Positions 16,793 to 38,474 of a stretch of DNA of 64,000 nucleotides are shown in pieces. The position numbers and the translations under genes are program-made. The notes under the pieces were generated by a model. The model did not search any database and had not been told where the DNA came from. It saw only the letters and a program-made list of their open reading frames with translations. The stretch comes from Candidatus Poribacteria bacterium (GTDB taxonomy: Bacteria; Poribacteria; WGA-4E; WGA-3G). Each line of letters begins with the position of its first letter. The first letter of the stretch is position 1. The stretch spans positions 3,493,083 to 3,557,082 of the forward strand of contig OZ244563.1 of assembly GCA_965217715.1 (NCBI GenBank). The letters are read 5' to 3'.

Positions 16793-16858
16793 ATGAATAG
16801 TAGGTTTTACGATTATTTATGGTAGATTTTAGAATTAATTAGACATTATTCACATGTA

Positions 16859-16925
16859 GGAGGGAACTCCGATTCCCGACTATCAATGGCTTTGGTCGCG
16901 ATTCGGAGATCGCTCCTACATGTGA
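16859..16925. repeat. ~65-nt repeat family GGGAACTCCGATTCCCGACTATCAA ... GTCGCGATTCGGAGATCGCTCCTACA (representative copy)
   Basis: Copies or partial copies at 5041..5103 (reverse), 19361..19427, 23881..23911, 26255..26315, 32431..32450, 33976..34048 and 35800..35852. Confidence 0.75.
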
Positions 16926-16968
16926 GGCGTATAATTATTTCAATAATTCACCATAAATACTGTGAACA

Positions 16969-16994
16969 GGCGAGGTTAGGAAACCTCGCCTACC
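16969..16994. repeat. REP-like hairpin module GGTAGG-stem-GGTT-AGGA/TCCT-AACC-stem-CCTACC (representative copy)
   Basis: More than 20 copies, for example 16969, 18268, 19199, 21989, 23281, 23328, 26769, 35300, 35381, 35430, 35515, 35560, 35687, 38248, 38375, 53760, 56138, 56182, 58095. The outer stem differs between copies with compensatory changes (cgagg/cctcg, gtgcg/cgcac, gatgc/gcatc, gttcg/cgaac). Confidence 0.85.
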
Positions 16995-17000
16995 GATTAA

Positions 17001-17040
17001 TTTAAGAGGCGCAATGAATTGCGCGACTACAAACACCACA
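17001..17040. repeat. Repeat family AAGAGGCGCAATGAATTGCGCGACTACAAACA (GCGCAAT-GA-ATTGCGC hairpin)
   Basis: Copies at 17001..17040, 19090..19130, 33805..33836, 56038..56072 and a partial copy at 26976..26992. Confidence 0.75.
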
Positions 17041-17087
17041 AATCCTAAGAAAATGTTCACTTAATTTTATAATCATAGTATCGCGAA

Positions 17088-18218
17088 CTATTCAACATCT
17101 TTTGCACAACGGAATCCGAGCGCACCAATCCCCGCATAAGCAGGACTATCTCCATAACGATTTGCAGCGCGTAACCATTCAGGATTACCGTTCCATCCAC
17201 TACCACGCAGGACACGATCAGTTACAACGTTCTCAAAATCGTTTACAATTTCTTCAATGTTTTCAGCACCAGCGACAGGATTTTGTTTTGGAGAATTTGC
17301 ATAGAAGTCACTCTGGTATGCGTCAAGACACCACTCCCACACATTCCCCGCCATATCATATACGCCGTAATCATTTGGTAGGTATTTACCAACAGGTGTC
17401 GTATGTCCGATATTCTTACCGTAGTTGGCTCTTGTCCCGTTAATCGTATTACCCCACGGATATTTTTTGCCTTTTAGTCCACCGCGTGCTGCCTTCTCCC
17501 ATTCTGCCTCTGTTGACAGACGTTTATCTACCCATTGTGCGTAAGCCATTGCGGCATACCAACTGACGTAACGTACAGGATGCTCACCTTCCTCGTCAGG
17601 ATAATTATTACCATTCCAATCGTGCAGATAATTACCATTTTGGAATCTTTCCTCAATGCGGTTTTTCTGCCACTCAGGGTTTGCGAGAATAAAGTCCTTA
17701 AATTGTGCATTGGTAATTTCGTTTTCATCAATATAAAAAGCATCAATATAAACGGTATGCTCGGGTTGTTCATCAGCATCACCATCTTCGCTTCCCATCT
17801 GAAATTCACCTTCCGGAATTAGCACCATCCCCTCAGGAGCAATAAGTTCCGGTTCAGAAACTTGCTCAGGTTCAACATCAAGCGGTTCGGAAGTACCTAC
17901 TGTGTATGTTAAATCTCGGGTTCCACCCTCCCATGTGAGTGTCAAGGTAAATTGTCCTTGTGGGAATGGACCCGCGATTGTGACCGTTGTGCCAAATATT
18001 GTGGCGGCACCCACATTCACCGCTACACTGCCAGGGTCTTTGTCAAAAGTAACGGTAATAGTGCTATTTGCCTTTATCATGCTACCGGGCGTTGGGTTTG
18101 CACGCAGCAACCGGACGGTTTCAACGTCATCATCTTCTGCCCGTTCTCCACAACCAGCGATGTAAACAACGGACATTCCTATTATTACCAACGCGAAAAT
18201 TTTTAACAAGGTTTTCAT
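17088..18218 (-). CDS. Lipoprotein with C-terminal formylglycine-generating enzyme (FGE/SUMF1) domain
   Basis: Lipoprotein signal (..VVYIAGC). FGE-sulfatase domain blocks: YPWGN, GNVWEWCLDAY, RVLRGSGWNGNPEWLRAANRYGD. Confidence 0.8.
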   Translation of the reverse strand: MKTLLKIFALVIIGMSVVYIAGCGERAEDDDVETVRLLRANPTPGSMIKANSTITVTFDKDPGSVAVNVGAATIFGTTVTIAGPFPQGQFTLTLTWEGGTRDLTYTVGTSEPLDVEPEQVSEPELIAPEGMVLIPEGEFQMGSEDGDADEQPEHTVYIDAFYIDENEITNAQFKDFILANPEWQKNRIEERFQNGNYLHDWNGNNYPDEEGEHPVRYVSWYAAMAYAQWVDKRLSTEAEWEKAARGGLKGKKYPWGNTINGTRANYGKNIGHTTPVGKYLPNDYGVYDMAGNVWEWCLDAYQSDFYANSPKQNPVAGAENIEEIVNDFENVVTDRVLRGSGWNGNPEWLRAANRYGDSPAYAGIGALGFRCAKDVE

Positions 18219-18349
18219 AGTTTCTCCTATTATGGTAGATTTTAGAATTACTTGGACATTTGCACCGGCGAGGTTAGGAAACCTCGCCTACCTGGGATGA
18301 AAGTGTCTATTTATTTTTATGATTCACCACAGATATTTTCAAAACAAAT

Positions 18350-19063
18350 TTATGCCTTCTTACCGACATGAATCGCAACAATACCCAAAGTTTTTCGAAA
18401 ATATTGGACATCTGTCAATCCGCACTGCTCCATAACTGCTTTCAACGCATCGCAATCAGGGAACTGCATAACAGAGCGAGGAAGATAGCCGTACGCATCA
18501 TCCTTGCTACGCGAGATACAATTGCCGATGAAAGGTAAAATCTTCGTGAAATAAAAATAATAGAGGCTACGAAACATCGGATTGACGGGTTGTGTAAACT
18601 CTAAGATTGCTATTCTACCGCCGGGCACAGCGATCCGTGTCATCTCTCGGATGCCCAATTCAAGATCGGAAACGTTTCGGATACCAAACCCTACAGAAAC
18701 AATGTCAAAAGTATTGTCCGAAAACGGGAGGGTAAGCGTGTCCGCTTCAATCGGGACAAAGGCGTGCGTCCTTCCCTGTCGTTCCACTTTTTGCTTGCCG
18801 ACAACTAACATCTCAAAGCAGAAATCAGAACCGATGACTGAGCCACTTGTGCCAATTTTGTCAGCATACGCAAGCGCAAGTTCACCTGTACCTGTGCAAA
18901 CATCAAGCACCTTGCTTGTTGGAGTTACACTGCTCGCTTTGACTGTTTCCCTTCGCCATACCCGATCAAATCGGAGGCTCAACAGCGAGTTGAGAAAATC
19001 ATAGTGGCGTGCGATAGTTGAAAATAGATTTTTTATACGGTGTGCTTGCATAGTAGTTTTCAA
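18350..19063 (-). CDS. ubiE: Demethylmenaquinone/ubiquinone C-methyltransferase
   Basis: SAM motif VLDVCTGTGELA. UbiE-like FDIVSVGFGIRNV and IAILEF blocks. About 237 aa. Confidence 0.8.
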   Translation of the reverse strand: MKTTMQAHRIKNLFSTIARHYDFLNSLLSLRFDRVWRRETVKASSVTPTSKVLDVCTGTGELALAYADKIGTSGSVIGSDFCFEMLVVGKQKVERQGRTHAFVPIEADTLTLPFSDNTFDIVSVGFGIRNVSDLELGIREMTRIAVPGGRIAILEFTQPVNPMFRSLYYFYFTKILPFIGNCISRSKDDAYGYLPRSVMQFPDCDALKAVMEQCGLTDVQYFRKTLGIVAIHVGKKA

Positions 19064-19508
19064 CCGAGTCTACTAACCGCAAATCTGAAGGTAAATGTAA
19101 GAGGCGCAATGAATTGCGCGACTACAAACAGATAATTTGAAAATGAGAAGTTATTTTCAGAAATGATATAAGTTTTAAAATTATCCATACACTATGCTCG
19201 GCGAGGTTAGGAAACCTCGCCTACCGGGTAGCGGTTGCAATTCACTGATATGTCTATTTATGGTAGAGATTAGAATTAACGCTACATTCCTGAACTGTGA
19301 ATCAACGCCAAATGCACATAAGGCATTCGGCCAAATCAACGCAGCATGCGCTTTTGGCATGCTGCGGGAGGGAACTCCGATTCCCGACTATTCATAAGTG
19401 CCATCGCGATTCGGAGATCGCTCCTACAGAGGAAATGTAGCATTATTTCTAAAATCCACTATATTTTTCTAATTCACTATAACCCTGACGATCAGGACGT
19501 TCCTAGCA

Positions 19509-21944
19509 TTACATTCTTAACTCCGCCCCAAGTTCCTGATTCAGTCGTTTGACAACCTTATCGTGGAGATCATTAACAGCTTTATCTGTCAAGGTTTCGG
19601 TTGCAGAGTGATACGTGATTGCGTAGGCAAGACTCTTTTTACCTTCTGGCACCTGATCCCCGATGTATACGTCAAAAAGCCTCACCGATTTAACTAACTC
19701 ACCTCCGGTGGAATAGATAATGTTAATCGGCACATCCGATTGCATATCTTGATCTACGACAATCGCGAGGTCGCGCAGGACACTGGGATAAATAGGAATC
19801 GGTTCAAAAAGTTTGGAAAAATCGGCTGCGTCGGCTAATGCTTCAAGATCAAGTTCAAAGAGATATGCCTCATAAGGCAACTCATAACTCTCCAGCACTT
19901 TCGGGTGTGTCTCTCCGAGGATACCGATGCGTTTTCCTTCCAACAATACCTCCGCATTGCGCCCCGGGTGGAAGGTCGGGTCTTCCGTTTTCTTAAATGT
20001 GTAATCAATGATACCGGAGACTTCAAGCATTCCCTCAACAATACCCTTAATGTCAAAGAAATCTGGATGCCGATAAGGATTGTTGTAAACACCGCCACCA
20101 ATTTCCCCTGCCAGAATACCTGCTACGCGTGCCGGTTCTTCATCTTTCATGAACACTGTTGAAATCTCAAAAAGTGCAATATTATCTATCTGATGATTGT
20201 GGTTGTGTTGGGCATTATCAAGCAGACTCGGCAACAACGTTGTGCGAAGTACTGACATCTCTGGACTCAACGGGTTTTTCAGTTGTAGTGTTTGGCGAAG
20301 TGGATTATCTGCTGCTAACCGTATCCTGTTAAAGCAGTTTGGGTGGCTGAAACTGTAGTTTACTGCTTCCATCATGCCAGAGCCAAGGAGATAATGCTTT
20401 ATACGCCTTCGGACTTCTGTTGAGATGTTTGGCACGGGGATAGGAATGTCACCCTTTGGTAGTGTTGTTGGGATGTTATCATAACCGTGGACACGTGCAA
20501 TCTCTTCAATCAAATCAATTTCACGTGTAATATCTGATCGGAACGATGGGACGGTGACCTGATAGACATCTTTCCCTGATTGTGATGCTTCTATGCCAAA
20601 TCCCAATCTACTTAAAATCTGCTCTATCTCTGATGCTGCAAGCGCGGTTCCTAATATAAAATTGACGCGTTCGGAACGAAGTTGAATCTGCAGTGGATCA
20701 CGTTGTCCTGGATAGACATCAATAATGCCTTCACAGATAATGCCGCCTGCTAACTCCACAATCATTTGTGCTGCACGGTCAAGCGCGGGGATAACAGCCT
20801 CTGGATCCGCGCCACGTTCAAATCTATATGATGCCTCAGTGTGTATTCCCAATGCTTTTGCAGTTGCGCGGACGCTTGACGGTTGGAAATTGGCGCTTTC
20901 CAATAGCACATCACATGTTGTTTCAGTGATTTCAGAGTCATAACCACCCATAATTCCCGCAAGTGCCACAGATTTTTCTGCATCGGCGATAACTAACATG
21001 TCTGGGGTGAGTTTGCGCTCATCTTCATCAAGCGTTGTAATCTGTTCTCCTTCTGCTGCACGGCGTACGATAATACGATTTTCAGCAAGTTTGTGATAAT
21101 CAAAGGCGTGCAGCGGTTGTCCATATTCCATTAAGACAAAGTTAGTAACATCTACGATATTATTTATCACACCGACCCCGATAGATTCAAGCCGTTGTTT
21201 TAACCATGCGGGAGATTCCCCGATTTTAACGCCGCGGATTACACGCGCTGCATAACGGGGACAGAGATCGGGGGCATCAATTGTTACGGATGTAAGTTCG
21301 CGTATGTCCGTTCCCTCTTCTTGTAGATCTACTTGAGGCAATTTCAAGTCGTTCCCTGTTTCAGCTCGTATCTCGCGGGCAACGCCTATCATACTGAGAC
21401 AGTCCGGACGGTTCGGTGTTATCTCCAACTCAAATACCACATCGTCTAACCCTAACGCTTCGGTGAGCGGTACGCCAAGGGTTAGGTATGAGGATAATTC
21501 CATTAGTCCTGCAGCTTCATCAGAAATGTCCAACTCTTTCTCTGAACAGAGCATACCGTGCGATTCTTCACCACGTAGTTTGGCACGTTTGATTGTAATG
21601 CCGGTTGATAATTCTGTACCGATTGTTGCGACAGGTGCGAACATACCTTCATAAACATTTGGTGCACCGCAAACAATCTGAAGTACGTCCGTCTCACCTA
21701 TATCTACCTGACAAAGTACAAGTTTATCGGCGTTCGGATGTGGTTTGATGGAAGTAACTTTGCCGACAACTATGCCTTCTAACGCGGCTCCAAGCTGCTT
21801 GACAGATTCAACTTCAATGCCTAACATCGTTAACCTTTCCGCAAGTTCGTCTGGAGAAAAATCAAAATCGATGTAGGTCTTTAGCCAATTTAGGGTTGCG
21901 TTCATAGATAAGTCCTTCAGAAATGGGTTCACACATACATTCAA
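19509..21944 (-). CDS. pheT: Phenylalanine--tRNA ligase beta subunit
   Basis: 811 aa. N-terminal tRNA-binding domain (KVTSIKPHPNADKLVLCQVDIGE), B3/4, B5 and FDX-ACB domains. Directly downstream of pheS. Confidence 0.95.
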   Translation of the reverse strand: MNVCVNPFLKDLSMNATLNWLKTYIDFDFSPDELAERLTMLGIEVESVKQLGAALEGIVVGKVTSIKPHPNADKLVLCQVDIGETDVLQIVCGAPNVYEGMFAPVATIGTELSTGITIKRAKLRGEESHGMLCSEKELDISDEAAGLMELSSYLTLGVPLTEALGLDDVVFELEITPNRPDCLSMIGVAREIRAETGNDLKLPQVDLQEEGTDIRELTSVTIDAPDLCPRYAARVIRGVKIGESPAWLKQRLESIGVGVINNIVDVTNFVLMEYGQPLHAFDYHKLAENRIIVRRAAEGEQITTLDEDERKLTPDMLVIADAEKSVALAGIMGGYDSEITETTCDVLLESANFQPSSVRATAKALGIHTEASYRFERGADPEAVIPALDRAAQMIVELAGGIICEGIIDVYPGQRDPLQIQLRSERVNFILGTALAASEIEQILSRLGFGIEASQSGKDVYQVTVPSFRSDITREIDLIEEIARVHGYDNIPTTLPKGDIPIPVPNISTEVRRRIKHYLLGSGMMEAVNYSFSHPNCFNRIRLAADNPLRQTLQLKNPLSPEMSVLRTTLLPSLLDNAQHNHNHQIDNIALFEISTVFMKDEEPARVAGILAGEIGGGVYNNPYRHPDFFDIKGIVEGMLEVSGIIDYTFKKTEDPTFHPGRNAEVLLEGKRIGILGETHPKVLESYELPYEAYLFELDLEALADAADFSKLFEPIPIYPSVLRDLAIVVDQDMQSDVPINIIYSTGGELVKSVRLFDVYIGDQVPEGKKSLAYAITYHSATETLTDKAVNDLHDKVVKRLNQELGAELRM

Positions 21945-22098
21945 TCCAATCTATAGTAGATTTTAAGATTGCTTGGATACTTTGCGCTGGCGAGGTTAGG
22001 AAACCTCGCCTACCGTGGTACAAAAGTGTCTATTTAATTTTATAATTCACCATAAATTGTTGGGTTTCGCTTGCAGCTCTACCCAACCTACAGCACTA

Positions 22099-23118: not shown

Positions 23119-23245
23119 TACCTCTACTTTTCTATTTGTTATAGGAACAAAACTTTGTACAATTTAGTGTTCTTATATGGTATTGGTTTATAGAAACCTT
23201 TTGACATTAACATTAGATTTTCATACACTTGTCACCCCGCTGGGG

Positions 23246-23384
23246 TTTATAGTGAAATCTAAAAATATGTTCACACTCCCTGGTAGATGCGGTTTCCTAA
23301 CCGCATCTATGGAGTGAATAAACACGGTTCGGTTAGGAAACCGAACCTACCGTAGTGTAAAAATAATTATGGGTTTTACTATAA
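23246..23384. repeat. Composite ~140-nt intergenic repeat (A/T-rich arms flanking two GGTTAGGAAACC-type hairpins); copies also at 35338..35447, 35512..35613 and 56097..56235
   Basis: Near-identical strings TTATAGTGAAATCTAAAAATATGTTCACACTCCCTGGTAGATGCGGTTTCCTAACCGCATCTATGGACTGAATAAACACGGTTCGGTTAGGAAACCGAACCTACCGTAGTGTAAAAATAATTATGGGTTTTACTATAA at all four sites. Confidence 0.85.
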
Positions 23385-23933
23385 ATTGGAGAATGGCACA
23401 TTTCTATAAACATTCCGCCCCGCTGGGGCTATACACACTCACAACATACAGATTCATTCGTTAAATTGGCACCTACTGGGACGTGTTAAATGATGCGGTG
23501 AATCAACGTCAAATGCGCTTTTTGGCATTTGGCGGGAAACCGCTATAGGCGTTAATTTAGTTCGAAATCGGGGTTGAAAACCCCTCCTACATTGCTTGAA
23601 AATATTTGTCAACAAAAACACCCATCACTTCGCTCCATAAAGGTTAATTCTTTATGGGGACGAAAGCGACAGGCATCTACTTCCGCGGTACCACCCCGCT
23701 TGACAGATTGTGAAATCTGCCCGCTTCATTTTTTTTTGCTGGCTCCAGGATGAAATTCAGCAGTTGCTCTCAAAACCACGCTTCCAACCGATGGCGCGGT
23801 CTCTCTGATTGAGAGGTCTCAACTTCCTACTGTGTCCCTTCATTGCCTTCTCATAGTGTATTGTTTATCAAATTTTGTGGTTTGGGGTCGCGATTCGGAG
23901 ATCGCTCCTACAAACACCTTCAATCGGTTTAAC

Positions 23934-24281: not shown

Positions 24282-24290
24282 TCTGAACTC

Positions 24291-24482: not shown

Positions 24483-24845
24483 TACAATATCCTTCTGTTG
24501 ATGGCTTATCCAAACTAACTTTTTCAGAGGTATTCTGTTAAGTAAGGGTAGGCATAGAAACACAAAAACCAATAAGATAATCACGGTTTTCTTGTAAACG
24601 ATACCTTCCTATCAAAAAGTCGTCAAATCGTAAAAGAACACGATTTTCCTCCATACACTTGCAACAAAATCTTTATGGTAAATTTTAGCATTACTTGGAC
24701 ACACTGCACCAGCGAGGTTAGGAAACCTCCAAATCAAGAAATCAACGCTACAAATGCCATTTAGGCATTTGGCGGGTATGAATGCCATTTAGGCATTCCC
24801 CGCCTACCAAGGGAGGCAAGTGTCTATTTTCTATAATCATCATAG

Positions 24846-25638: not shown

Positions 25639-26127
25639 CTAAAAGTAGCCAATTGTCCATAAAGTCCGTAAAATGATAATCCCACCTGCTAAACCGCCAA
25701 ATATAATAATGAGGCTGAGGTTGATTATTAACGCGTGCCGAAAGATTCGTTCAGTTAATTCCGGTTGTTCCTTTACCCATGCCCGTGCTAAGTTGAAGGT
25801 TAGGACAACGCTAATCAGGCTCAGGATAGCCGCGCCTAAAAATGCCACGAGAATACCTCGAAAATCTACCATCTCCATTGTGTCTGGGATTGAACCGTAT
25901 TGTGAATAACGTTGGATGACAACGATTAAGATGCCCAACAAAATGACAATAAATCCGATGAATGCGATTAGGGCTTTTTTAAAGGTTATCGTGAACGACT
26001 TAACCCATTGATACGTGCGCCTGATGCAAACGATTAGGGCTTTTTTAAAGGTTATCGTGAACGACTTAACCCATTGATACGTGCGCCTGATGCAAACGAT
26101 TAGGGCTTTTTTAAAGGCATTTCCCAT
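25639..26127 (-). CDS. Small polytopic membrane protein containing a 66-bp (22-aa) tandem duplication
   Basis: 162-aa ORF with three predicted TM helices. Its N-terminus repeats FKKALIVCIRRTYQWVKSFTIT twice and starts a third copy. The DNA repeat covers about 25970..26110. Confidence 0.4.
   Translation of the reverse strand: MGNAFKKALIVCIRRTYQWVKSFTITFKKALIVCIRRTYQWVKSFTITFKKALIAFIGFIVILLGILIVVIQRYSQYGSIPDTMEMVDFRGILVAFLGAAILSLISVVLTFNLARAWVKEQPELTERIFRHALIINLSLIIIFGGLAGGIIILRTLWTIGYF
25970..26110. repeat. 66-bp direct tandem repeat (2.3 copies) inside the coding sequence
   Basis: GATTAGGGCTTTTTTAAAGGTTATCGTGAACGACTTAACCCATTGATACGTGCGCCTGATGCAAAC occurs twice in a row, followed by a 21-nt partial third copy. 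Confidence 0.85.
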
Positions 26128-26732
26128 CTTTGCTAAACTCTTTCGGGTTATAGACTATATGGTAATTTTAACATATTTGCGGTGTGATGGCAAGATTAGT
26201 TGTTCTTACCGCAGAGGCGTTCAATTTTCGGTTTTTTATTCGTTTGAGTCGTAAAGTCATGATTCGGAGATTGCTTCTATAGATGCGGGTCGCGATTCGG
26301 AGACCATTCCTACTTAAAAAGTTACCATTTGGCAACTTTTTTCATACCGTGGTAACTTTTTGAAATTCGCTATAAACTCAGTGTATGTATGGGTTTATAG
26401 GCATTTTATTAAAATTTTGTTTTTTCATCTTCATTGAGGAATACGTGTTTCCTTTTGCTGGAGATATTTTATTTTGATAAGTTTTGCGTTGTCGTCTTTG
26501 CATTAGAGAGTTACTTTAGATTTTCGGTGTGTTTGGGGATCGGTTTTCTCTTTTCATACTGATATTATACCAAGTTCTGTGTAGTGATCAGAGGTTTTTG
26601 TGGTGTTAGGAACAATAGATATCCAATATATTTCCAATAAGTTTGCAGGAAAAGCTGGGGTTGATACGTTTTTTGCCCTCCTTCGGGTCCACTTGAGACA
26701 TTGAGTGTAAAGATGATGTTCATATAACTATT

Positions 26733-26858
26733 ATAACGTGAGTTTGATAAATCAGATTTTTGGACTCGGTGCGGTTAGGAAACCGCACCTACCGGGCTTA
26801 TGAGAATAAGATTTTATGCAAAATGAAGTTCATATATCTATTATCAAACTCACGTTAT
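26733..26858. repeat. MITE-like element (~126 bp) with AACGTGAGTTTGATAA terminal inverted repeats and an internal hairpin module; further copies at 38211..38335, 38338..38465 (variant), 30622..30768 (variant interior) and a half-copy at 35448..35511
   Basis: Terminal inverted repeat ATAACGTGAGTTTGATAA ... TTATCAAACTCACGTTAT. Interior carries GGTGCGGTTAGGAAACCGCACCTACC. Copies are nearly identical in sequence. Confidence 0.8.
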
Positions 26859-27041: not shown

Positions 27042-30000
27042 TTGCGCTTAAGATGTCAATGCATATATAATAAAAATATGAATTTTCAAAGACACTGCAA
27101 CCGTTATCTAAAGAAAATACGTCAAACACAATCCGACTCGAATGCAACCCCCGAACTTTCTTTGCACCACCATCTCCAAGCATTCTTGGAAGATGTTACC
27201 ACAGACGCAGAATGTTTTAATAGACCCAACATAACATTTACGCACGAACCGAGAAATATTGACCAGATCGGACGACCTGATTTCATTGCAAAAGATGGAT
27301 TTCTACCACTTGGTTATATTGAGGCGGAAGCGGACGGCACAGACCTAAACAACCTAACAGGGCATGCCGCAGAACAGAATGAACGTTTTAGGGAAAACCT
27401 TGATAACTTTATCCTCACCAATTTCATTGGTTTTGAGTTGTGGCGGGATGGGCAACTACGTGCTTATGCAAATATTGAGAATGAAACTGATAATTTTAAA
27501 ACGTTATTGGAGCAGTTTCTGGACGCTGGGCATGTCCAAATCGCCTCTGCAGAGGCACTTGCAAAATACCTCGCCAGACGGACGCGTGAACTACAAACGC
27601 AGATTGCAACAACGCTCACCGATGAGGACAGTGAAACTTACAGCATGTTCAACGCGTTCAAGGAAACGTTGCTCGTCACACTCACCCGTGACGATTTCGC
27701 GGATATGTATGCGCAAACTCTTACCTACGGATTGTTCGCCGCACGCTGCACATTGCCGAATGCAACAAATTTTTCACGGCACACCGCAGTCGGTGCACTG
27801 CCAAGATCAAACCCATTCCTCATAGAACTCTTTTATCACGTCGCTTCTCCGAGACTTGAGACGAATGTTACCTATATTCTGGATGACATTGCAACGCTGC
27901 TCCAAAACGTCTCAACTGAAATGCTCCGCACAGCTTTCTCTGCAAATAACCATCTTGAAGACCCAGTTATCCATTTCTACGAGACATTTCTAAAAGAATA
28001 TAATCCAGAACTTCGCTTTGATCGTGGGGTATTTTATACACCGCCGCAGGTTATCTCCTACATCGTCAAATCTGTGGATAGTCTGCTGAAAACAGAACTC
28101 AACAGATCCGATGGACTTGCAGATGATGATACGCTTATTCTCGATCCTGCCACAGGTACGGGCGGATTTCTGCTAACAGTGCTTGACCATATCCGAGAAT
28201 ATGTTACGACCAATTACGGTACAGGGGATTGGAATCAGTATATCAACGCAAATTTGGTCCGACGGCTTTATGGATTTGAACTACTTGTTGCACCTTATAC
28301 GATTGCGCATCTGAAGTTAAGTCTGTTTTTGCAAGCGCAAGGGTGGCGCACTAATGAACGTCTCGGCATCTATCTGACCAATGCTTTGGAACAACCGGAT
28401 GAGATGCAGGCACCTTTGCCTTTTGCTGCGTTTATCTCTGACGAAGCGAACGCGGCACTCGCTGTGAAAAGGGACGAACCTATCCTTGCTATTCTCGGCA
28501 ATCCTCCGTATCCAGAAAATTCTGCTAACCCAAGCCGAGTCAATAGAAAATTAACTTTTATTGGTGAACTCATTGAAGATTACAAACAGGTAGATGGAGA
28601 ACCGATCAATGATAGGAACTTAAAAATGCTTCAGGCAGATTATGTAAAATTCACTCGATGGGCACAGTGGCGAATTGATAGAAACGGTGAAGGCGTTATC
28701 GGTTATATTGTCAATAATAGTTTCCTTGATGGTCCCGCTTTTCGTGGGATGCGGCAGAGTCTAATGACGAGTTTCAACGCTATCTACATACTCAATTTAC
28801 ACGGTAGCATCAGAAGACAGGAAGCAGTACCGAATGGACAGAAAGATGAAAATATCTTTGATATTTCACAAGGAGTCTCTATTCTGTTATGTGTCAAAGA
28901 ACGTGGCAATCCTTCACCGGCAAAGGTTTATCACGCGGATATGTGGGGATCTCGAGAAGAAAAATACAGAACACTTTCGGAAACCGATGTTCAGTCCACA
29001 GAGTGGTGTAAGTTACAACCGAAATCACCACTTTACCTTTTTGTGCAACAAGCTACAGACTATAGTTCAGAGTACGAAGCAGGTATCAGAATTAACGATA
29101 TTTTTCATATAGGTTCGGTTGGAATGGCTACGGGTCGGGATAGATTGACGATTCACCAGACTGCTGAAGATGTCCATAAAACGGTAACCGATTTTGCTTC
29201 ACTTTCTGCAGATGAAGCACGGGAACGGTATGATTTGGGAAGGGATACTCACCATTGGCAGATTCCTCGTGCTCAGACAGATCTTCGCAATAACTCAGAT
29301 GCCGAACAACACATAACAAAAATTCGCTACCGCCCCTTTGACATGCGTTGGACCTATTATACAGGGCAAACAGGTTTCCACTCACGTCCAAACTACAATA
29401 TCATACGACATTTACACGGCGTTGAAAATCTTGCTTTCTGTGTCTGTCGCATTGTTACAAGCTCTGTTTGGAAGCATGTTTTGATAACTGACAATATAAC
29501 TGAAAAGAGTTATATCTCAAATAGAGGAAGTGAAGCCACTCACTTATTCCCGCTCTACCTGTATCCAGATTCAGAGGCATTATTAGGTTCAACAGAACGT
29601 GAACTCAATTTCAAACCTGAATTTCTCACCGCACTCTCGGAGGCGTTGGGATTACCGCAGGCTGCACCGTTTGGACTCCCCGAAGACGTTACACCAGAGG
29701 AAATTCTCGCTTATATTTACGCTGTGCTTTATAGTCCTACCTATCGCGAACGTTATTATGAGTTTCTAAAATACGATTTTCCGCGTATCCCTTTACCACA
29801 GGATATTGACTCCTTTTTTGCACTTGCAGAGTCAGGGCAAGAATTAATTGATCTGCATCTCTTCAAGGATAGGAACATACCGCATCGCCATCGGTTTGAG
29901 GGTGAAGGTGATGGCGTTGTCTCAGGGGTTCGTTATGAAGGTGGTAATGTTTGGATAAATGGGACGCAGCATTTTACGGATGTGCCTGCAGATGTGTGGG

Positions 30001-30158
30001 AATATGAGATCGGGGCGTATCAGGTGTGTTTGAAGTGGTTGAAGGATCGGCGGGGAGAAACGTTGAGTCATGCGGAGGTGCGTCAGTATTGTTCTATTTT
30101 GGTTGCTGTTGCGGAGACGCTGCGGGTGATGGGGGAGATTGATGATGTGCTGTGGTAG
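27042..30158 (+). CDS. Type IIG/IIL restriction-modification enzyme (MmeI-like): N-terminal PD-ExE nuclease-like domain, N6-adenine methyltransferase, C-terminal target-recognition domain
   Basis: 1038 aa. N-terminal RPDFIAKDGFLPLGYIEAEAD aligns to the MmeI D...E.K nuclease core, with E in place of K. Motif I LDPATGTGGFLL. Motif IV ILGNPPYPEN. NNSFLDGPAFRGMRQ block. Long C-terminal region. The true start may be the internal MNFQ at about 27078. Confidence 0.7.
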   Translation: MRLRCQCIYNKNMNFQRHCNRYLKKIRQTQSDSNATPELSLHHHLQAFLEDVTTDAECFNRPNITFTHEPRNIDQIGRPDFIAKDGFLPLGYIEAEADGTDLNNLTGHAAEQNERFRENLDNFILTNFIGFELWRDGQLRAYANIENETDNFKTLLEQFLDAGHVQIASAEALAKYLARRTRELQTQIATTLTDEDSETYSMFNAFKETLLVTLTRDDFADMYAQTLTYGLFAARCTLPNATNFSRHTAVGALPRSNPFLIELFYHVASPRLETNVTYILDDIATLLQNVSTEMLRTAFSANNHLEDPVIHFYETFLKEYNPELRFDRGVFYTPPQVISYIVKSVDSLLKTELNRSDGLADDDTLILDPATGTGGFLLTVLDHIREYVTTNYGTGDWNQYINANLVRRLYGFELLVAPYTIAHLKLSLFLQAQGWRTNERLGIYLTNALEQPDEMQAPLPFAAFISDEANAALAVKRDEPILAILGNPPYPENSANPSRVNRKLTFIGELIEDYKQVDGEPINDRNLKMLQADYVKFTRWAQWRIDRNGEGVIGYIVNNSFLDGPAFRGMRQSLMTSFNAIYILNLHGSIRRQEAVPNGQKDENIFDISQGVSILLCVKERGNPSPAKVYHADMWGSREEKYRTLSETDVQSTEWCKLQPKSPLYLFVQQATDYSSEYEAGIRINDIFHIGSVGMATGRDRLTIHQTAEDVHKTVTDFASLSADEARERYDLGRDTHHWQIPRAQTDLRNNSDAEQHITKIRYRPFDMRWTYYTGQTGFHSRPNYNIIRHLHGVENLAFCVCRIVTSSVWKHVLITDNITEKSYISNRGSEATHLFPLYLYPDSEALLGSTERELNFKPEFLTALSEALGLPQAAPFGLPEDVTPEEILAYIYAVLYSPTYRERYYEFLKYDFPRIPLPQDIDSFFALAESGQELIDLHLFKDRNIPHRHRFEGEGDGVVSGVRYEGGNVWINGTQHFTDVPADVWEYEIGAYQVCLKWLKDRRGETLSHAEVRQYCSILVAVAETLRVMGEIDDVLW

Positions 30159-30160
30159 GT

Positions 30161-30337
30161 TGTCTGAACCAGGATTTGCAGGATTATAGGATTTTCAGGA
30201 TTATAGAAACCTACTGAGAAAATAAAGTCTGTTTGATGGATTACCGATTTGACGATGTTCTCTCACACAAGATAGTATCAACTAAAATACATACTAATCT
30301 TGGTAATCCTATAATCCTGCAAATCCTGGTTCAGACA
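30161..30337. repeat. Long inverted-repeat element: TGTCTGAACCAGGATTTGCAGGATTATAGGA ... TCCTATAATCCTGCAAATCCTGGTTCAGACA (31-bp perfect arms, ~110-bp spacer); related copies at 45247..45430 and 55905..55950
   Basis: The arms are perfect reverse complements. The shared core GTCTGAACCAGGAT recurs at three loci, each directly after a gene end. Confidence 0.75.
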
Positions 30338-30530
30338 AATAAGAATGCCGCAGCAGCATGAGTTGCGATGCTTGCAACGTCTCTAAAGCATACATCTGCC
30401 CTTTGAGGTCGCTAAATTCAACTTCAAATACTTCCGGTTCATATTCTTCAACAATAGTGCCGACCTGTCCACGGTATAATTTAAGTGCGGGCATATCCTC
30501 TATGAGTGCAACTGTATCAAATAGTTTCAT
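30309..30530 (-). CDS. DUF4926-like small protein
   Basis: MKLFDTVALIEDMPALKLYRGQVGTIVEEYEPEVFEVEFSD resembles the DUF4926 family of about 70 aa. Confidence 0.4.
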   Translation of the reverse strand: MKLFDTVALIEDMPALKLYRGQVGTIVEEYEPEVFEVEFSDLKGQMYALETLQASQLMLLRHSYLSEPGFAGL

Positions 30531-30747
30531 TTCAGAATAACTACCATAAAAACAAAACAATTCACCTTAATGACAAATTTAGGACTCAACATAAACAATT
30601 TCATGAGGTTGAATAACTTGTAGTAACGTGAGTTTGATAAATCCCGTAGGTTGGGTTGAACCGCAGGTGAAACCCAACATTTAGAGTCTATAAAAGCGTT
30701 TCAAGTTGGGTTTCGTTCCTCAACCCAACCTACATCTACATTTGGAT

Positions 30748-31047
30748 TTAATTATCAAACTCACGTTGTAGTACCTCGCGTAACTGCGGTATCAGGGGAA
30801 GCAGGGCATCTAATCTGTTCCTATAAGCAACAAGCACAACAACTGCAATATCAAAATGGATAAGGTTCTGTTGATATTCAATGTTTCTGTCAGCAGTAAG
30901 CCAGACGTCAAATTCTTTCTCTGCTATGTGGAGCAAGTCCCCATTTTCTATACCGGACCAGCCTTTTTCTTGAACCGTAAAAACAGTATGCCCGCGCAAC
31001 TCTTGTTTGAGTTTTTTAGGTAAGCATTCATCAATCAGAATATGCAT
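30748..31047 (-). CDS. DUF5615 (PIN-like/Mut7-C-like) putative toxin
   Basis: 99 aa, MHILIDECLPKKL ... Overlaps the upstream DUF433 gene by 17 nt. Its last codons lie within a MITE terminal inverted repeat. Confidence 0.55.
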   Translation of the reverse strand: MHILIDECLPKKLKQELRGHTVFTVQEKGWSGIENGDLLHIAEKEFDVWLTADRNIEYQQNLIHFDIAVVVLVAYRNRLDALLPLIPQLREVLQREFDN

Positions 31048-31282: not shown

Positions 31283-31315
31283 GCGTGCGTTTCTCCTCCC
31301 TTGTAATATTCAAAA

Positions 31316-31642: not shown

Positions 31643-31650
31643 AGAACAGG

Positions 31651-33744: not shown

Positions 33745-34152
33745 CTCATAAATCGGAATTCGTTAGTTCACTACGCTAATTCAAGCCATAAAATACTAAT
33801 GTAAGAGGCGCAATAAATTGCGCGACTACCAACGCGTTCCTGCTTATGGTAAAGATTACAATTAACACTACATTCCTGAACTGTGAATCAACGTCAAATG
33901 CACATAAGGCATTTGTCCAAATCAACGCTGAATGCGCCAAATCAACGGTATGAATGCCTTATGGCATTCCCCGTATGGCATTCAGCGGGAGGGAACTCCG
34001 ATTCCCGACTATCAATGTGTTTCGTCGCGATTCGGAGATCGCTCCTACAGAGGAAATGTAGAATTATTTCTATACTCCACTATAAGTAAACATCTCTTTA
34101 AAAAAAGATCGGGTTTAGAAACCCTCCCACGATTTATGAGATAGATTGTAGT

Positions 34153-35052
34153 TTAGCGCGAGAGACCTAATTCGGTGAGTAATTCTTTAAGTTCAGCTTT
34201 CTCTGTATCATTGAGAGGCAGCAATGGACTTGTTGTGTGTGCCTTACAAACGCCCAAAATCTCTAAACACGCCTTCATACCGCTTACACCTTGTCCGTAG
34301 GTATAGAGTTTGCTGAGCTTGATCATCCATTTCTGGAGTCGGTCAACCTCGTCAATGTCGCGTGCTTTTGCGGCGTTATAGAGTGCGACAGATTCTCTCG
34401 GTGCGACGTTTGCGATAGAAATGACCCCGCCATCAGCACCGAATAGCAACGCTGCCCCTATAATAAAATGCGAACCGATGAAGATGGAGAAATCGTCACG
34501 TTCACCAAGCAGTGCCAAGAGATGGAGGCTATTTATCCAGTCACCGGAGCTATCCTTAATGCCAACGATATTATCACAATCATCTGCCAGTTGCGCGACA
34601 ATATGCGGTTTGATAGCGGTTTTCGCTGTAGACGGAATATTGTAGATTAGCACGGGTAATTCAGTGCTTGCAGCGATTTCCTGATAGAATTGGATTATGT
34701 CTGCGTCATCGGTGGAGGGATAATAGTAACCGGGAGTCGCAGCGACAGCATCAACCTGAAACTGTTGTGCAGTCTCAATGTTTTGTATGACGCGCTGGGT
34801 GCTTGTATCCATCACACAACAGATAATCGGGACGCGTCCTGCAATAGTTTTGGTGGCGATGTCCAACGCACGTTCACGCTCCGCATTTGTTAACGTTGTA
34901 AACTCACCAGAAGAACCCAGCAGATAAATGCCGTGAACGCCATTGTCAATCAGTCTGTTAAGCTGTCTAACAAACCCAAGTTCATCAACGCGTTCTTTTT
35001 CATCAAGTGGTGTAACCGTTGGTGAAAAAATACCTTCATATTGGATGTTCAT
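34153..35052 (-). CDS. DapA-family (dihydrodipicolinate synthase/N-acetylneuraminate lyase family) class I aldolase
   Basis: GVHGIYLLGSSGEFTTLTNAERE ... VPIICCV ... TIM-barrel Schiff-base lyase family. The likely start is MNIQYEG, since the ORF-track start at 35103 adds 17 aa. Confidence 0.75.
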   Translation of the reverse strand: MNIQYEGIFSPTVTPLDEKERVDELGFVRQLNRLIDNGVHGIYLLGSSGEFTTLTNAERERALDIATKTIAGRVPIICCVMDTSTQRVIQNIETAQQFQVDAVAATPGYYYPSTDDADIIQFYQEIAASTELPVLIYNIPSTAKTAIKPHIVAQLADDCDNIVGIKDSSGDWINSLHLLALLGERDDFSIFIGSHFIIGAALLFGADGGVISIANVAPRESVALYNAAKARDIDEVDRLQKWMIKLSKLYTYGQGVSGMKACLEILGVCKAHTTSPLLPLNDTEKAELKELLTELGLSR

Positions 35053-35901
35053 TGTTGCCTCTCTCATGTTTCGCTGAATTGTAGCATAATTGCAGTTTAG
35101 CAAAGCCCAATTTAAATGTCAATACCTTCTAAAAATGGGGCAGAACCATTCAATTGTTGAGTTTACCCAATTAATGGTGATGGGTAAACGGGTGCGTCAA
35201 CATTCCGCCTCTACGAGGCTCAAGAACTTAGGATAACGCTTTTTCTATAAACATTCCGCCTCTACGAGGCTATATACAAATCCTTAAATTCACGCTTAGG
35301 GTGCGGTTAGAAAACGCACCTCGGACATTGTTGGAGGGTTTTATAGTGAAATCTAAAAATATGTTCACACTCCCTGGTAGATGCGGTTTCCTAACCGCAT
35401 CTATGGACTGAATAAACACGGTTCGGTTAGGAAACCGAACCTACCGTAACGTGAGTTTGATAATAGATATATGAACTTCATTTTGCATAAAATCTTATTC
35501 TCATAAGCCCGGTAGGTGCGGTTTCCTAACCGCATCTATGGACTGAATAAACACGGTTCGGTTAGGAAACCGAACCTACCGTAGTGTAAAAATAATTATG
35601 GATTTTACTATAAACGCCGATACATTGATATATAATCGGGGTTGAAAACCCCTCTCACAAGATAATCAGACACTAAATTGACGCTTAGGATGCGGTTGGG
35701 AAACCGCACCTACCAAAGTGTAAAAGTAATTACAGATTCTACTATAATGGTGATGTATTATCCAATTAACTTGACAGTCTTGTTTTGTGGGAGAAAACTC
35801 TGATTCCCGACTATCAAAGCGTTTCGTCGCGATTCGGAGATTGCTCCTACCAGTGATTTCACCACAAAAACTTACACGCCCACCTGAATTAATTCATTGC
35901 C

Positions 35902-37824
35902 TTGATTTCAGCGGTATGGTATGATAGAAACATGCATCAAAACGAACCAAGCGCTATTCAGGACGTTGAGAAACCTTCAACACTCCGTTTTTTTGTTGGT
36001 ACTCTCCTCTTCGGTTCTATCCTCATCATTCTAACCTGTTACTGGATTATCTCCGCAGAAAACCGTGTGGTATGGGAACTCACAGATTTTTCAATCTTTC
36101 CCACTGTGCTTTTCACGTTCTTTCTGCTTGCAGCCCTTTCACCTTTCTTAAGAAGATTATTCAAACATGCTGCGCCAACCTCACGTGAACTGGCGTCGAC
36201 ATATATTATGGTTTCGGTAGCGACAGCACTTGCAGGGCACGACATCGTCCGTCAATTAGTGCCGATGATAGCAAACGCAGGGTGGTTTGCAACACCAGAA
36301 AATGAATGGGCAGACATCTTCTTTCGCTTTTTACCAACGTGGTTGACGATTACCGATCGTAAAATTCTGCGAGGCTATTTTGAAGGAGATGATACCTTTT
36401 GGCAACCCCGCTACATGGAAGCGTGGATGTGGCCAATTATTGCGTGGAGCGTTTTGGTGATTGTACTGATGTTTATGATGTTATGCATCAATATCATCAT
36501 CCGAAAACAGTGGATTGACCATGAAAAGTTGAGTTATCCGCTGACAACGCTTCCAGTTGAACTGCTCGGCAATACGTCGAACCTTTTCCGCAATAAACTA
36601 ATTTGGCTCGGTTTCGGAATTGCGTTTGGTCTTGAGATTTTGGCAGGATTGAATTACCTTTTTCCTGTGATTCCCTCGCTATCAATTAAGTATAGACTCT
36701 TCTTTCCAGATCGTCCTTGGAATGCAATGGGGCGTTTGCCAGTCTATGTTTATCCATTTGCAATCGGGTTAGGTTACCTAATGCCGTTGGATTTAGCACT
36801 ATCTTTCTGGAGTTTTTATTTGTTCTGGGGATTGCAGCGCGTCTTTTTTACTGCGATAGGATGGACAACGGCAATCGGTTTTCAAACAGAACAACGGGCA
36901 GGTGCGTGGATTGGGATAGGATTACTTGCACTGGTAACAAGTCGAAGAGAAATTTTAAAGGTGTTAGGAGGGGTATTCTCTTTTAGATCGAAAGATCGTT
37001 TATATCAACTTGCTGTATTTGGTCTGATATTTGGATTAGGAATTGTATTGATATTTTGGTATTTCGCCGGACTATCGCCTTGGGTTGCGCTCGGATATTT
37101 CGGCATCTATTTGGTGTTGTGCATCGGGATGACCCGCATGCGTGCAGAACTGGGTCCCCCGACACACGAGTTGCATGGAGTTCATCCGGACCGAATTATG
37201 CTATTATTTTTAGGCAGTCGTCCATTAGGCGCGCAAAATTTGACAAACACAACCTTATTATCTTGGCTTGCTTACGGGTATCGGTGTCATCCGATGCCAC
37301 ATCAATTGGAGGCGTTTAAAATCGGCAGACACTTCCGTCTCCGTGAGAATCGGTTGGTTATTGCCTTGATAGTAGCATCAATCGTAGGTGCAATCATTTC
37401 CATTGTTGGGCATGTGGCACTCTATTACGAATTTCGGTTTGCACGCTGGGGAGTCGGTGAGTTTAACCGCCTGCAAAACTGGATTACCGCGCCGCGCGCG
37501 CCGAACCTCCCTGCTATTCAACACATGGGGTTTGGCTTCCTTTTAACCGGTATTTTGACGATTCTCAAACGGCAGTTTTTGTGGTGGCCGTTTTATCCAG
37601 TCGGATATGCCGTAGGAAACGGTTGGGCAATCGGATGGATGTGGTTTTCAATTTTTTTAGGATGGCTCTTTAAAAGACTACTTTTTACAGGGGGCGGTGT
37701 GCGTGCTTACCGCAGAGCGTTACCGTTATTCTTAGGACTTATCTTTGGTCAGTTCCTTGCAGGAAGCCTGTGGAGTTTGTTAGGCGTGCTGTTTAACAAG
37801 AACATGTACACCCTGTTTCCATGA
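35902..37824 (+). CDS. Large polytopic membrane protein of unknown function (paralog 1)
   Basis: 640 aa with at least 12 predicted TM segments. Conserved blocks RKQWIDHEKLSYPLTTLPVEL ... shared with 53937..55904. Confidence 0.55.
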   Translation: MISAVWYDRNMHQNEPSAIQDVEKPSTLRFFVGTLLFGSILIILTCYWIISAENRVVWELTDFSIFPTVLFTFFLLAALSPFLRRLFKHAAPTSRELASTYIMVSVATALAGHDIVRQLVPMIANAGWFATPENEWADIFFRFLPTWLTITDRKILRGYFEGDDTFWQPRYMEAWMWPIIAWSVLVIVLMFMMLCINIIIRKQWIDHEKLSYPLTTLPVELLGNTSNLFRNKLIWLGFGIAFGLEILAGLNYLFPVIPSLSIKYRLFFPDRPWNAMGRLPVYVYPFAIGLGYLMPLDLALSFWSFYLFWGLQRVFFTAIGWTTAIGFQTEQRAGAWIGIGLLALVTSRREILKVLGGVFSFRSKDRLYQLAVFGLIFGLGIVLIFWYFAGLSPWVALGYFGIYLVLCIGMTRMRAELGPPTHELHGVHPDRIMLLFLGSRPLGAQNLTNTTLLSWLAYGYRCHPMPHQLEAFKIGRHFRLRENRLVIALIVASIVGAIISIVGHVALYYEFRFARWGVGEFNRLQNWITAPRAPNLPAIQHMGFGFLLTGILTILKRQFLWWPFYPVGYAVGNGWAIGWMWFSIFLGWLFKRLLFTGGGVRAYRRALPLFLGLIFGQFLAGSLWSLLGVLFNKNMYTLFP

Positions 37825-37828
37825 GAGC

Positions 37829-38173
37829 TTAAAAATCTTCCAACGCCTCTGCTTCAGACGCGTATACACCGATGCTTTGTGTCAATCCGATGGTATTAAA
37901 AATAGTCCTCACCTGCATTGCGGGATGTGCAATGCGCAATGTTTGTCCTTTATCCCGTGTCTTCCAAAGCAACTTGATAATTGTGCCAAATCCGCTACTT
38001 GTAATGAAGCTTTGGCGATCAAAGTTGAGCAAAAGTTTTGTTGCCTCCTGCACGCCATTGTCAGCATACGCATCATTAATAGCCTCTTCAGATTCGTTTG
38101 TTAAATAACCGGTAATGTCAAATATTGCAATGTCGCCTTCGTGTCGGATAGAGACCTGTGGTTGTGCCCTCAC
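37829..38173 (-). CDS. STAS-domain anti-sigma factor antagonist (SpoIIAA-like)
   Basis: 114 aa. ...LNFDRQSFITSSGFGTIIKL ... is the STAS signature. Confidence 0.7.
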   Translation of the reverse strand: MRAQPQVSIRHEGDIAIFDITGYLTNESEEAINDAYADNGVQEATKLLLNFDRQSFITSSGFGTIIKLLWKTRDKGQTLRIAHPAMQVRTIFNTIGLTQSIGVYASEAEALEDF

Positions 38174-38474
38174 ATTTTCCTCCTAAGGATTAAAATCCTA
38201 AATACGTAAAATAACGTGAGTTTGATAAATCAGATTTTTGGACTCGGTGCGGTTAGGAAACCGCACCTACCGGGCTTATGAGAATAAGATTTTATGCAAA
38301 ATGAAGTTCATATATCTATTATCAAACTCACGTTAAAATAACGTGAGCTAGACATAAGTAATTTTGGAAATCGGTGCGGTTAGGAAACCGCACCTACCAC
38401 GGTTATATGTGTGAAATACTAAACATTAAGAGCTTCATAACTCTTAGACCGAGCTCACGTTAAAAATAGAATCA

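Follow-up and report, generated by a model that had tools for sequence, protein, structure and literature searches.

Why should so much of the space between genes in a bacterial chromosome be occupied by small hairpins whose stems change from copy to copy while their pairing is kept? The question arises in a 64-kb stretch of Candidatus Poribacteria DNA (the window, meaning the whole stretch that was analyzed; positions are counted from its first nucleotide), for which a sequence-only reading had described a modular set of intergenic hairpin repeats and had proposed that they are selected for structure, as RNA or as DNA. Our analysis indicates that these hairpins are very probably GTAG-tagged repetitive extragenic palindromic sequences (REPs), accompanied by inverted doublets of the REPIN (REP doublet forming hairpin) or BIME (bacterial interspersed mosaic element) type and by longer carriers with terminal inverted repeats (TIRs), all of them non-autonomous and spread in trans by REP-associated tyrosine transposases (RAYTs). 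Such elements explain the unusually long intergenic DNA in Poribacteria genomes; only ~77% of the window is coding.

The repeats are far too frequent to have arisen by chance. With one mismatch allowed, the core GGTTAGGAAACC has 18 occurrences in the 64-kb window against 0.25 expected (100 shuffles, none of which reached 18), and a family-by-family census placed every window copy between genes. The sequence-only reading had counted at least seven families, a figure borne out by GTAG-type hairpins (families A, B, C, E, and F), further hairpins of types D and G, and TIR carriers of types H, I, J, and K. Family A is present as 8 REPs inside doublets and 10 single ones, family C as 5 doublets and ~4 singles. 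The statement that nearly every intergenic gap is filled holds between 16.8 and 38.5 kb, where 12 of the 14 gaps that reach 100 nt contain intra-window repeats, but not over the whole window, where 17 of 35 such gaps have them; altogether they cover ~18% of intergenic bases. Repeat copies were present in all of the coordinate blocks previously listed, although part of one block (23130-23930) is a T-box leader (23653-23852, minus strand) and not a repeat. The four double-hairpin copies described as ~140 nt long were recovered as ~139-nt units at 23246-23384, 35340-35478, 35475-35613, and 56098-56236, and they fold strongly as single strands (z = -5.2 to -7.9). A CRISPR or tandem array was considered and dismissed, since the copies are dispersed, with unique flanks and irregular spacing.

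The one-sided tag and the paired stem

Perfect hairpins were listed with their flanks across the window, and the gaps were then read individually. Nearly every hairpin family carries GTAG at one end of the hairpin, in the form GGTAGG, GTAGGAG, or GTAGTC. The family A unit reads 5'-GGTAGG-NNN-GGTT-TCCT-AACC-NNN-CC-3' and forms a 9-bp stem with a 4-nt loop. Stems are 5 to 8 bp in family B (GTAGTC-GCGCAA-TTCA-TTGCGC), family C (GTAGGAG-GGAA-CTCCGA-TTCC-CGAC and GTAGGAG-CGAT-CTCCGA-ATCG-CGAC, mostly as an inverted pair), family E (GTAGGAG-GGGTT-TTC-AACCC), and family F (GTAGGTTGGGTT...). The tag is found on 23 of 58 perfect hairpins between genes (40%) but on 5 of 66 inside coding sequence, and the figure for random positions is 6.8% (Fisher p = 2.5e-5). 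In ~1 Mb of Poribacteria DNA, hairpins of 5 bp or more follow 22.8% of GTAGG[CT] and GTAGGAG occurrences, against 2.4 to 3.3% for control 4-mers, and 168 of 169 tagged copies lie outside open reading frames (ORFs).

The tag also has a fixed position. Relative to the asymmetric loop it stands on one side rather than the other by 160 to 4 overall and by 13 to 0 in the window, so that the unit has an orientation and a tag at a single end. This departs from the symmetric GGTAGG...CCTACC module described earlier: symmetry exists only in inverted doublets and in one palindrome (58089-58117), and the variable part of the stem, given as 5 to 7 nt, is actually 3 to 4 nt. The window holds four inverted doublets of family A and five of family C, with the tags outside in all. 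The one-sided GTAG unifies the families and classes them as GTAG-tagged REPs and inverted doublets of the REPIN/BIME type; the sequence-only reading missed it and hence did not name the REP/REPIN class that RAYTs serve.

To describe the stem we aligned 150 distinct copies of family A, some from the window and the rest from other Poribacteria, and scored the nine pairs. Pairing is intact in 89.6% of cells, and both partners have changed in 113 cells; shuffles gave 32.9±4.5, and none of 500 came up to 113. The covariation score is 0.248, compared with 0.03 to 0.05 when the partner column is slid. Variation in family A is limited to three lower-middle pairs, and the tag, the loop, and the four upper pairs hardly vary. 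Three stem types predominate, TGC/GCA, TTC/GAA, and CGA/TCG, with 14 to 35 different sequences apiece, and the types CAC/GTG and ATGC/GCAT occur as well. The claim that pairing is kept while the stem changes was thus upheld at three stem pairs, and a covariation check on the hairpin copies, as had been suggested, gave support. As to selection on structure, the structure is indeed conserved through compensatory changes, but we read the cause as a REP/RAYT system acting at the level of DNA. The compensatory signal consists of a handful of pairing founder variants, each amplified, and not of many independent substitutions.

RAYT genes in related Poribacteria

Scanning for GGTTAGGAAACCNNNCCTACC, with one genome per species, returned at least 112 stretches. 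The sequence-only reading had suggested searching related genomes for the hairpin core, and this proved informative: the family A pattern is present in at least 55 assemblies, all of them Candidatus Poribacteria by name except one "uncultured bacterium," and closed chromosomes of 5 to 6 Mb are among them. This breadth also bears on the possibility that the copies are assembly artefacts, that is, collapsed or chimeric copies of a repeat. The assembly is probably metagenomic, and repeats can mislead assemblers; the copies, however, lie in unique flanks between intact housekeeping genes, they differ from one another, and the same families recur in these independent assemblies. Recurrence in at least 55 assemblies, closed chromosomes included, rules out such an artefact, to which we give practically no credence, and it assigns the window to this phylum.

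With the E. coli TnpA_REP, checked against PDB 4ER8, as query, all ORFs of the pattern-bearing loci were searched for RAYTs. One locus (L049) encodes, at positions 2012-2485, a protein of 157 aa. Its Pfam match is Y1_Tnp (1.7e-16), and against NCBIfam NF047646, REP_Tyr_transpos, it scores 128.4 bits (cutoff, 80). Family A arrays lie on both sides of this gene, with GGTGCGGTTAGGAAACCGCACCTACC copies upstream and GGTAGGCACGGTTTCCTAACCGTGCC arrays downstream, one hairpin of the latter overlapping the 3' end of the gene; the arrangement is the classic REPtron layout. Three more proteins, P0070 (L113), P0017 (L114), and P0076 (L115), also pass the RAYT model. The NF047646 scores are 128.4, 134.7, 129.3, and 126.6 bits, whereas the IS200 model gives 34 to 52 bits, under its cutoff of 55.

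The flanks of seven further RAYTs were fetched. Three of these RAYTs (L196, L197, and L198; 72 to 84% identical) have family A flanks. Two others (L113 and L199; 60 to 62% identical), which share a conserved DUF5683-SnoaL-Cupin neighborhood, carry on their flanks GT[AG]GGAG-AGGCA-TCCY-TGCCT-CGAT, which belongs to the same tag class as window families C and E, and the remaining two (L114 and L115) each have GTAGG hairpins of their own. Judged by these flanking sequences, RAYT clades pair with different REP classes. RAYT homologues number 91; those with names come from Poribacteria, and most clusters are represented by one contig. The motifs PDHVH (HUH) and Y-x-x-NP are conserved in 70 full-length homologues and align with the E. 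coli enzyme, and L113 shares the synteny of its RAYT locus with L199, as L049 does with L196.

Several other genes were encountered during this search. A partial ORF in L112 with a weak match to YafM (E = 0.021) was set aside as unrelated. In L114, a TnpB-like ORF (1211-2329; OrfB_IS605, Cas12f1-like_TNB) lies directly upstream of the RAYT gene and may be either a chance neighbor or an IS605-like remnant. A second Y1 transposase family, of the IS200 type (NF033573, 72 bits), is encoded at L049:7022-7552 (minus strand), L092:448-936, and L009:5637-6119 (minus strand). On its flanks are TCTATAGACAT-GCACTCC-NNN-GGAGTGC hairpins, with compensatory variants; window family G (solo at 23403 and 35244) is of this type, which thus accompanies the IS200-like enzyme and not the RAYT. 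In this respect family G, in which TCTATAGACAT is followed by stem, loop, and stem, resembles the ends of IS200/IS605 elements and their palindrome-associated derivatives; having no GTAG tag, it is a separate system that shares intergenic space with the REPs.

The GTAG-tagged families have close counterparts in better-studied bacteria, where REPs form a recognized class of small DNA hairpins, parasitic or domesticated, that a dedicated RAYT copies. REPs are extragenic and often occur as inverted pairs, and the single-copy tnpA_REP gene is flanked by REPs (PMC8266576). A survey recognized 24 GTAG families in 8 phyla, with HH dimers, REPtrons, and sub-families that "feature alternative complementary stem residues" (Di Nocera et al., PMC3733652). 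For the group 3 RAYT of Stenotrophomonas maltophilia, cleavage requires the GTAG tag and one base of the loop and is impaired by stem mismatches, but complement swaps of the three bottom pairs are tolerated or even improve it (PMC8266576). By analogy, the invariant tag, loop, and upper stem of family A, together with its free but paired lower stem, match these published needs of a RAYT on folded single-stranded DNA. The S. maltophilia SMAG elements, with REPtron Sm, and the Pseudomonas REPs (PMC3733652, PMC8266576), short perfect palindromes associated with group 3 RAYTs, share with the Poribacteria elements a GTAG at one end followed by a perfect stem of 6 to 9 bp and a short loop, subfamilies with complementary stems, inverted dimers with the tags out, several families per genome, a RAYT flanked by cognate REPs, and an invariant loop and upper stem above a free, paired lower stem. 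They differ in that the Poribacteria sequences are unrelated, the tag is extended (GGTAGG or GTAGGAG), the host does not belong to the Proteobacteria, and many copies are inside longer TIR carriers and nested in each other.

Comparison with E. coli and Pseudomonas fluorescens leads in the same direction. The E. coli REP/BIME system has in common with the Poribacteria one an HUH/Y1 enzyme of ~160 aa (TnpA_REP, also RayT or YafM; PDB 4ER8) with HxH and Tyr-x-x-N-P motifs, GTAG-tagged extragenic palindromes, and pairs of a REP and an inverted REP. The protein similarity is weak, however (phmmer E = 2.4e-7 and 4.4e-5), and the REPs of E. coli are longer and imperfectly palindromic, with a bulge that they cannot do without. 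Like the REPINs of P. fluorescens SBW25 (Bertels & Rainey 2011, PMC3116915), in which two inverted REPs and a short spacer form one long hairpin that recurs as a unit, the window has family C doublets of ~64 to 72 nt and K-type doublets of 139 nt. The single-copy, vertically inherited RAYT of SBW25 may have a parallel in Poribacteria, where RAYT clusters are mostly on one contig and synteny is conserved. Unlike in SBW25, singlets in the window are about as common as doublets, and the K-type doublets have extra outer inverted repeats and two REPs with different stems. In the literature searched, no paper joins Poribacteria with REP, RAYT, or REPIN; our results extend REP/RAYT systems to this uncultured phylum of sponge symbionts. 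Unusual here are how densely the elements are packed, how many tag classes reside together, the nesting, and the clean contrast of filled with empty sites.

We propose the following mechanism. A RAYT (TnpA_REP, an HUH/Y1 enzyme), presumably encoded once per genome elsewhere on the chromosome, would spread the REPs in trans. As in the biochemistry of the E. coli, Stenotrophomonas, and Marinomonas enzymes, it would bind the folded single-stranded REP, reading tag, loop, and upper stem, would cut beside the hairpin by way of a 5'-phosphotyrosine intermediate, and would pass the strand on to another single-stranded site, probably one at a replication fork. Because such an enzyme would require the lower stem to be paired but would not require its sequence, founder variants that kept their pairing could have been amplified into subfamilies, which would account for the compensatory stem variation. 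Any effect of the hairpins on mRNA is predicted to be secondary.

Several points weigh against this interpretation. The 64-kb window yielded no RAYT in searches with the E. coli TnpA_REP (phmmer) or with a Poribacteria RAYT (jackhmmer), and the cognate RAYT is shown only in related genomes, not in the window's own. The copies are paralogues, so that the covariation statistics rest on few independent events. Carriers of types H, I, and K could be moved by another enzyme, for example a DDE transposase, and carrier amplification may therefore explain part of the copy number. Finally, the D-type hairpins (tag GTAT, leader AATCAACG) and the G-type hairpins linked to IS200-like Y1 enzymes are unexplained by a RAYT of the NF047646 type.

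Empty sites, RNA roles, and carriers

A metagenome scan with the window PheT recovered two fully syntenic loci (L116 and L117) whose proteins are 72 to 93% identical. The gaps of the window are consistently longer than theirs: pheS-pheT, 154 nt (holding the carrier at 21948-22058) versus ~40 nt; pheT-ubiE, 445 versus 24 to 45 nt; ubiE-FGE, 131 versus 22 to 35 nt; FGE-HDAC, 295 versus ~20 nt; and rplT-pheS, 810 versus ~305 nt. Families A, B, C, and E have 0 copies in the two relatives versus 15 in the syntenic 12.5 kb of the window. The short gaps without REPs in such close relatives indicate that the elements were inserted in the window's lineage. The conserved core of the rplT-pheS gap is the T-box leader upstream of pheS (RF00230; 74.3 bits, E = 2e-15, below the gathering score of 93), which is conserved in L117 and was missed by the gathering-threshold scan. 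In the window, ~535 nt of REP-type repeats stand between it and the pheS start codon; in the relative, the distance is ~70 nt.

One alternative regards the hairpins primarily as RNA elements, terminators or 3'-end stabilizers selected at the RNA level and conserved for that role, a view that we consider very unlikely. The hairpins do lie in transcribed operon spacers (infC-rpmI-rplT-pheS-pheT-ubiE) and in the pheS leader downstream of the T-box, and reports on the REPs of E. coli describe effects on mRNA stability and on termination (PMC3733652, PMC8266576). Some counts lean toward such a role as well: orientation relative to transcription is slightly biased in tandem-gene gaps (64 to 42), wobble-compatible mismatches are ~2-fold commoner on the GTAG strand (47 versus 24), and terminator-like sites are mildly enriched (27 versus 18±4.4). 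Yet both orientations are common, and the enrichment at convergent gene ends expected of a terminator or mRNA stabilizer did not appear; tagged copies occupy 106 tandem, 19 convergent, and 18 divergent gaps, with convergent gaps not enriched and divergent ones not depleted. A T-run is absent from most copies, only the TTC subtype within doublets being flagged as terminator-like, and orthologous operons of close relatives work without the hairpins. At the gathering threshold, an Rfam scan of the window returned only two tRNAs and no match to a hairpin; in the permissive scan that gave the T-box leader, a microRNA match on one doublet was rejected as due to chance. Selection at the RNA level, furthermore, gives no rationale for the one-sided GTAG tag or for the RAYT flanks. 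A primary terminator or stabilizer function is not supported; the hairpins must be transcribed within operons, and side effects could follow. For annotators this is a warning that these spacers are to be taken as mobile-element debris and not as regulatory RNAs.

The longer units raise a different alternative, that the repeats are ordinary miniature inverted-repeat transposable elements (MITEs), TIR-bounded deletion derivatives of insertion sequence (IS) elements of the DDE type, with the GTAG hairpins as passengers or insertion targets. The hairpin module had been reported inside a TIR-bounded element, and we found it there, at 26733-26858 and 38211-38336, within an 18-bp TIR (ATAACGTGAGTTTGATAA); a repeat search delimited the same elements as a 139-nt unit that starts at 26724 and 38202 and ends in 18-bp inverted repeats. 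Types I, K, and J all have clear TIRs (18 bp in I) and fold as long hairpins. Each stem subtype of family A in the window is bound to a unit of its own (CGA to H, TGC to I, ATGC and TTC to the K doublet), and one and the same I-type TIR encloses different cargo, either a family A REP (26733, 38211) or an F doublet (30623). Some IS elements are known to target REPs for insertion. Even so, MITEs seem to us a still weaker candidate than RNA elements. Many REPs have no TIR carrier at all (families B, C, and E, as well as family A in other genomes and around the RAYT genes), and no autonomous parent with these TIRs was found in the ~1 Mb of Poribacteria sequence fetched; long-spaced TIR pairs (L046, L067) enclose ORFs without apparent transposase features, as judged by inspection only. 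Target-site duplications were sought at the orthologous empty sites and could not be established, the flanks being too diverged to define insertion sites. The tag, its fixed orientation, and the link with RAYT clades are all left unexplained by MITEs.

The earlier suggestion that modules recombine into composites is correct, as several junctions show in addition to the swapped cargo of the I-type repeats. The chimera at 35446-35540 joins half of an I-type unit to half of a K-type unit within the hairpin, creating the hybrid stem GGTGC/GCATC. At 24711-24805, an inserted D-type double hairpin separates the tag of a family A REP from its stem, and D-type hairpins fused to half a family A REP occur at at least 10 loci of other genomes. 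One speculative extension of the REP/RAYT account, to which we would assign only a minor chance, is that the REP hairpin serves as a breakpoint at which non-autonomous elements swap halves, through RAYT strand transfer or through template switching at the hairpin. In that case Poribacteria would be home to a combinatorial ecosystem that keeps reassembling REPs, D hairpins, and TIR carriers into composites, and a recent bloom in the window's lineage would have put ~535 nt of such modules into the leader of the essential, T-box-controlled pheST operon. If this were true, the junctions, which lie at fixed positions (the tag/stem boundary and the loop), would have recorded in nature where a RAYT cuts and rejoins strands. 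Several tag classes that co-occur with matching RAYT clades, orthologous sites both filled and empty, and fixed-position junctions together make a useful natural data set, one relevant to the choice of cleavage sites by RAYTs and to the spread of REPs, questions still unresolved in model systems.

D-type hairpins occur in the window at 4973-5038, 19300-19366, 23501-23545, 24740-24805, and 33886-33984; their outer stems vary in a compensatory way, they nest in each other's loops after ATGC, and they abut family A or C REPs where the GTAG tag would stand. The H motif (ATGTCTAATTAATTCTAAAATCTACCATAA) regularly follows GGTAGG hairpins, in the window at 18226-18262, 5121-5150, and 16815-16850 and in arrays beside the RAYT gene of L114 (3150-3420). 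The copy at 18219-18262 ends 10 nt before the start codon of the FGE-sulfatase gene and abuts the ribosome-binding site. The J-type element, which is unrelated to the GTAG hairpins, has the TIR TTGTCTGAACCAGGATT and AGGATT-rich inner repeats; the window contains it twice in full (~180 nt; 30160-30338 and 45248-45429) and once as a solo end (55910-55957), and across Poribacteria it gave 22 hits in 14 sequences.

Feature coordinates and neighboring sequence

Coordinates of the hairpin elements in the window are collected in Table 1. The family C doublet for which folding was computed there has a free energy of -22.9 kcal/mol.

Table 1. REP-type hairpins, doublets, and carriers in the 64-kb window, with strand and folding z score where available.
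Feature	Positions	Strand	z
Family A single, CGA/TCG stem; plus strand GGCGAGGTT-AGGA-AACCTCGCC-TACC	16969-16994	minus	
Family A, CGA type, within H-type carrier 18226-18335	18267-18292	minus	
Family A, CGA type	19200-19225	minus	
Family A, CGA type, within H-type carrier 21948-22058	21989-22014	minus	
K-type inverted doublet, REPIN-like, tags outside, imperfect TIR TTTATAGTGAAATC...; family A REPs of ATGC type at 23282-23307 (plus) and TTC type at 23326-23351 (minus)	23246-23384		-7.7
H-type carrier; family A REP (core 24716-24727) split by nested D double hairpin 24740-24805	24670-24845	minus	
I-type TIR carrier, TIR ATAACGTGAGTTTGATAA; family A REP of TGC type at 26768-26793 (minus)	26733-26858		-9.1
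Two fused K-type doublets with an I-type half between, chimera junction within hairpin; family A REPs at 35376-35401 (plus), 35420-35445 (minus), 35511-35536 (plus, hybrid GGTGC/GCATC), and 35555-35580 (minus)	35340-35613		
Family A variant, loop GGGA (GGTTGGGAAACC)	35689-35714	minus	
I-type carrier; family A REP of TGC type at 38246-38271 (minus)	38211-38336		
Diverged (65%) I-type-like unit; family A REP at 38373-38398 (minus)	38329-38467		
Family A, CGA type, one mismatch; followed by H-type tail 53804-53823	53760-53785	plus	
K-type inverted doublet, 99% identical to 23246-23384; family A REPs at 56134-56159 (plus) and 56178-56203 (minus)	56098-56236		
Family C inverted doublet, GTAGGAG tag class, orientation reverse to other C doublets; halves GCGAT-CTCCGA-ATCGC and GGGAA-CTCCGA-TTCCC with compensatory differences	5039-5102		
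Family C inverted doublet, GTAG tags outside, one long hairpin	16856-16919		-6.8
Family C doublet; left tag is GCGG where D-type hairpin abuts	19364-19427		
Family C doublet, preceded by nested D-type hairpins (33886-33984)	33985-34048		
Family C doublet, left half diverged	35787-35850		
Family C single, right after rplT stop codon	23887-23911	minus	
Two degenerate family C copies in tandem	26256-26313	minus	
Family C variant, compensated stem GCGACC/GGTCGC	56006-56030	minus	
Family B REP; minus strand GTAGTC-GCGCAA-TTCA-TTGCGC-CTC	17006-17030	minus	
Family B REP	19101-19125	minus	
Family B REP, loop variant	33805-33829	minus	
Family B REP	56041-56065	minus	
Family E REP; minus strand GTAGGAG-GGGTT-TTC-AACCC-C	23570-23590	minus	
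Family E copy, tag degenerate	35638-35658	minus	
Family E copy, tag degenerate	47823-47843	minus	
I-type TIR carrier with F-type doublet (GTAGGTTGGGTT..., at 30646 plus and 30733 minus) in place of family A REP	30623-30769		
Perfect 13-bp palindrome, tag on both sides: GGTAGGCGCGTTT-CCA-AAACGCGCCTACC	58089-58117		
D-type hairpins (AATCAACG leader; GTAT-GAATGCC-ATTTA-GGCATTC-CCCG), nested in another D loop	4973-5038	plus	
Family G hairpin TCTATAAACATTCC-GCCCC-GCT-GGGGC	23403-23432	plus	
Family G hairpin, compensated stem GCCTC/GAGGC	35244-35272	plus	

Some repetitive sequence in the window stands apart from these families. An AT-rich noncoding region of ~360 nt (26310-26672) is 86.6% identical to L052:2791-3149 and 74% identical to L107:5597-5986, both of which are contigs of one other Poribacteria isolate, and is probably another dispersed element without a GTAG hairpin. 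Within coding sequence, the ORF at 25639-26127 (minus strand), which encodes a small membrane protein, contains a ~60-nt tandem duplication at 25970-26110, through which FKKALIVCIRRTYQWVKSFTIT is repeated in the protein. The 572-aa ORF at 45950-47668 (minus strand), which we take to be a WD40-like repeat protein, has internal repeats of 111 to 129 nt that a repeat search returned as families D2, D5, D7, and D13 and that are unrelated to the hairpins. Two adjacent paralogous genes, at 3208-3993 and 4099-4887, share blocks of 74 to 82% nucleotide identity. Finally, a gene for a Type ISP restriction-modification enzyme (27042-30158, plus strand; Type_ISP_C, N6_Mtase) adjoins a repeat-rich gap of 900 nt.

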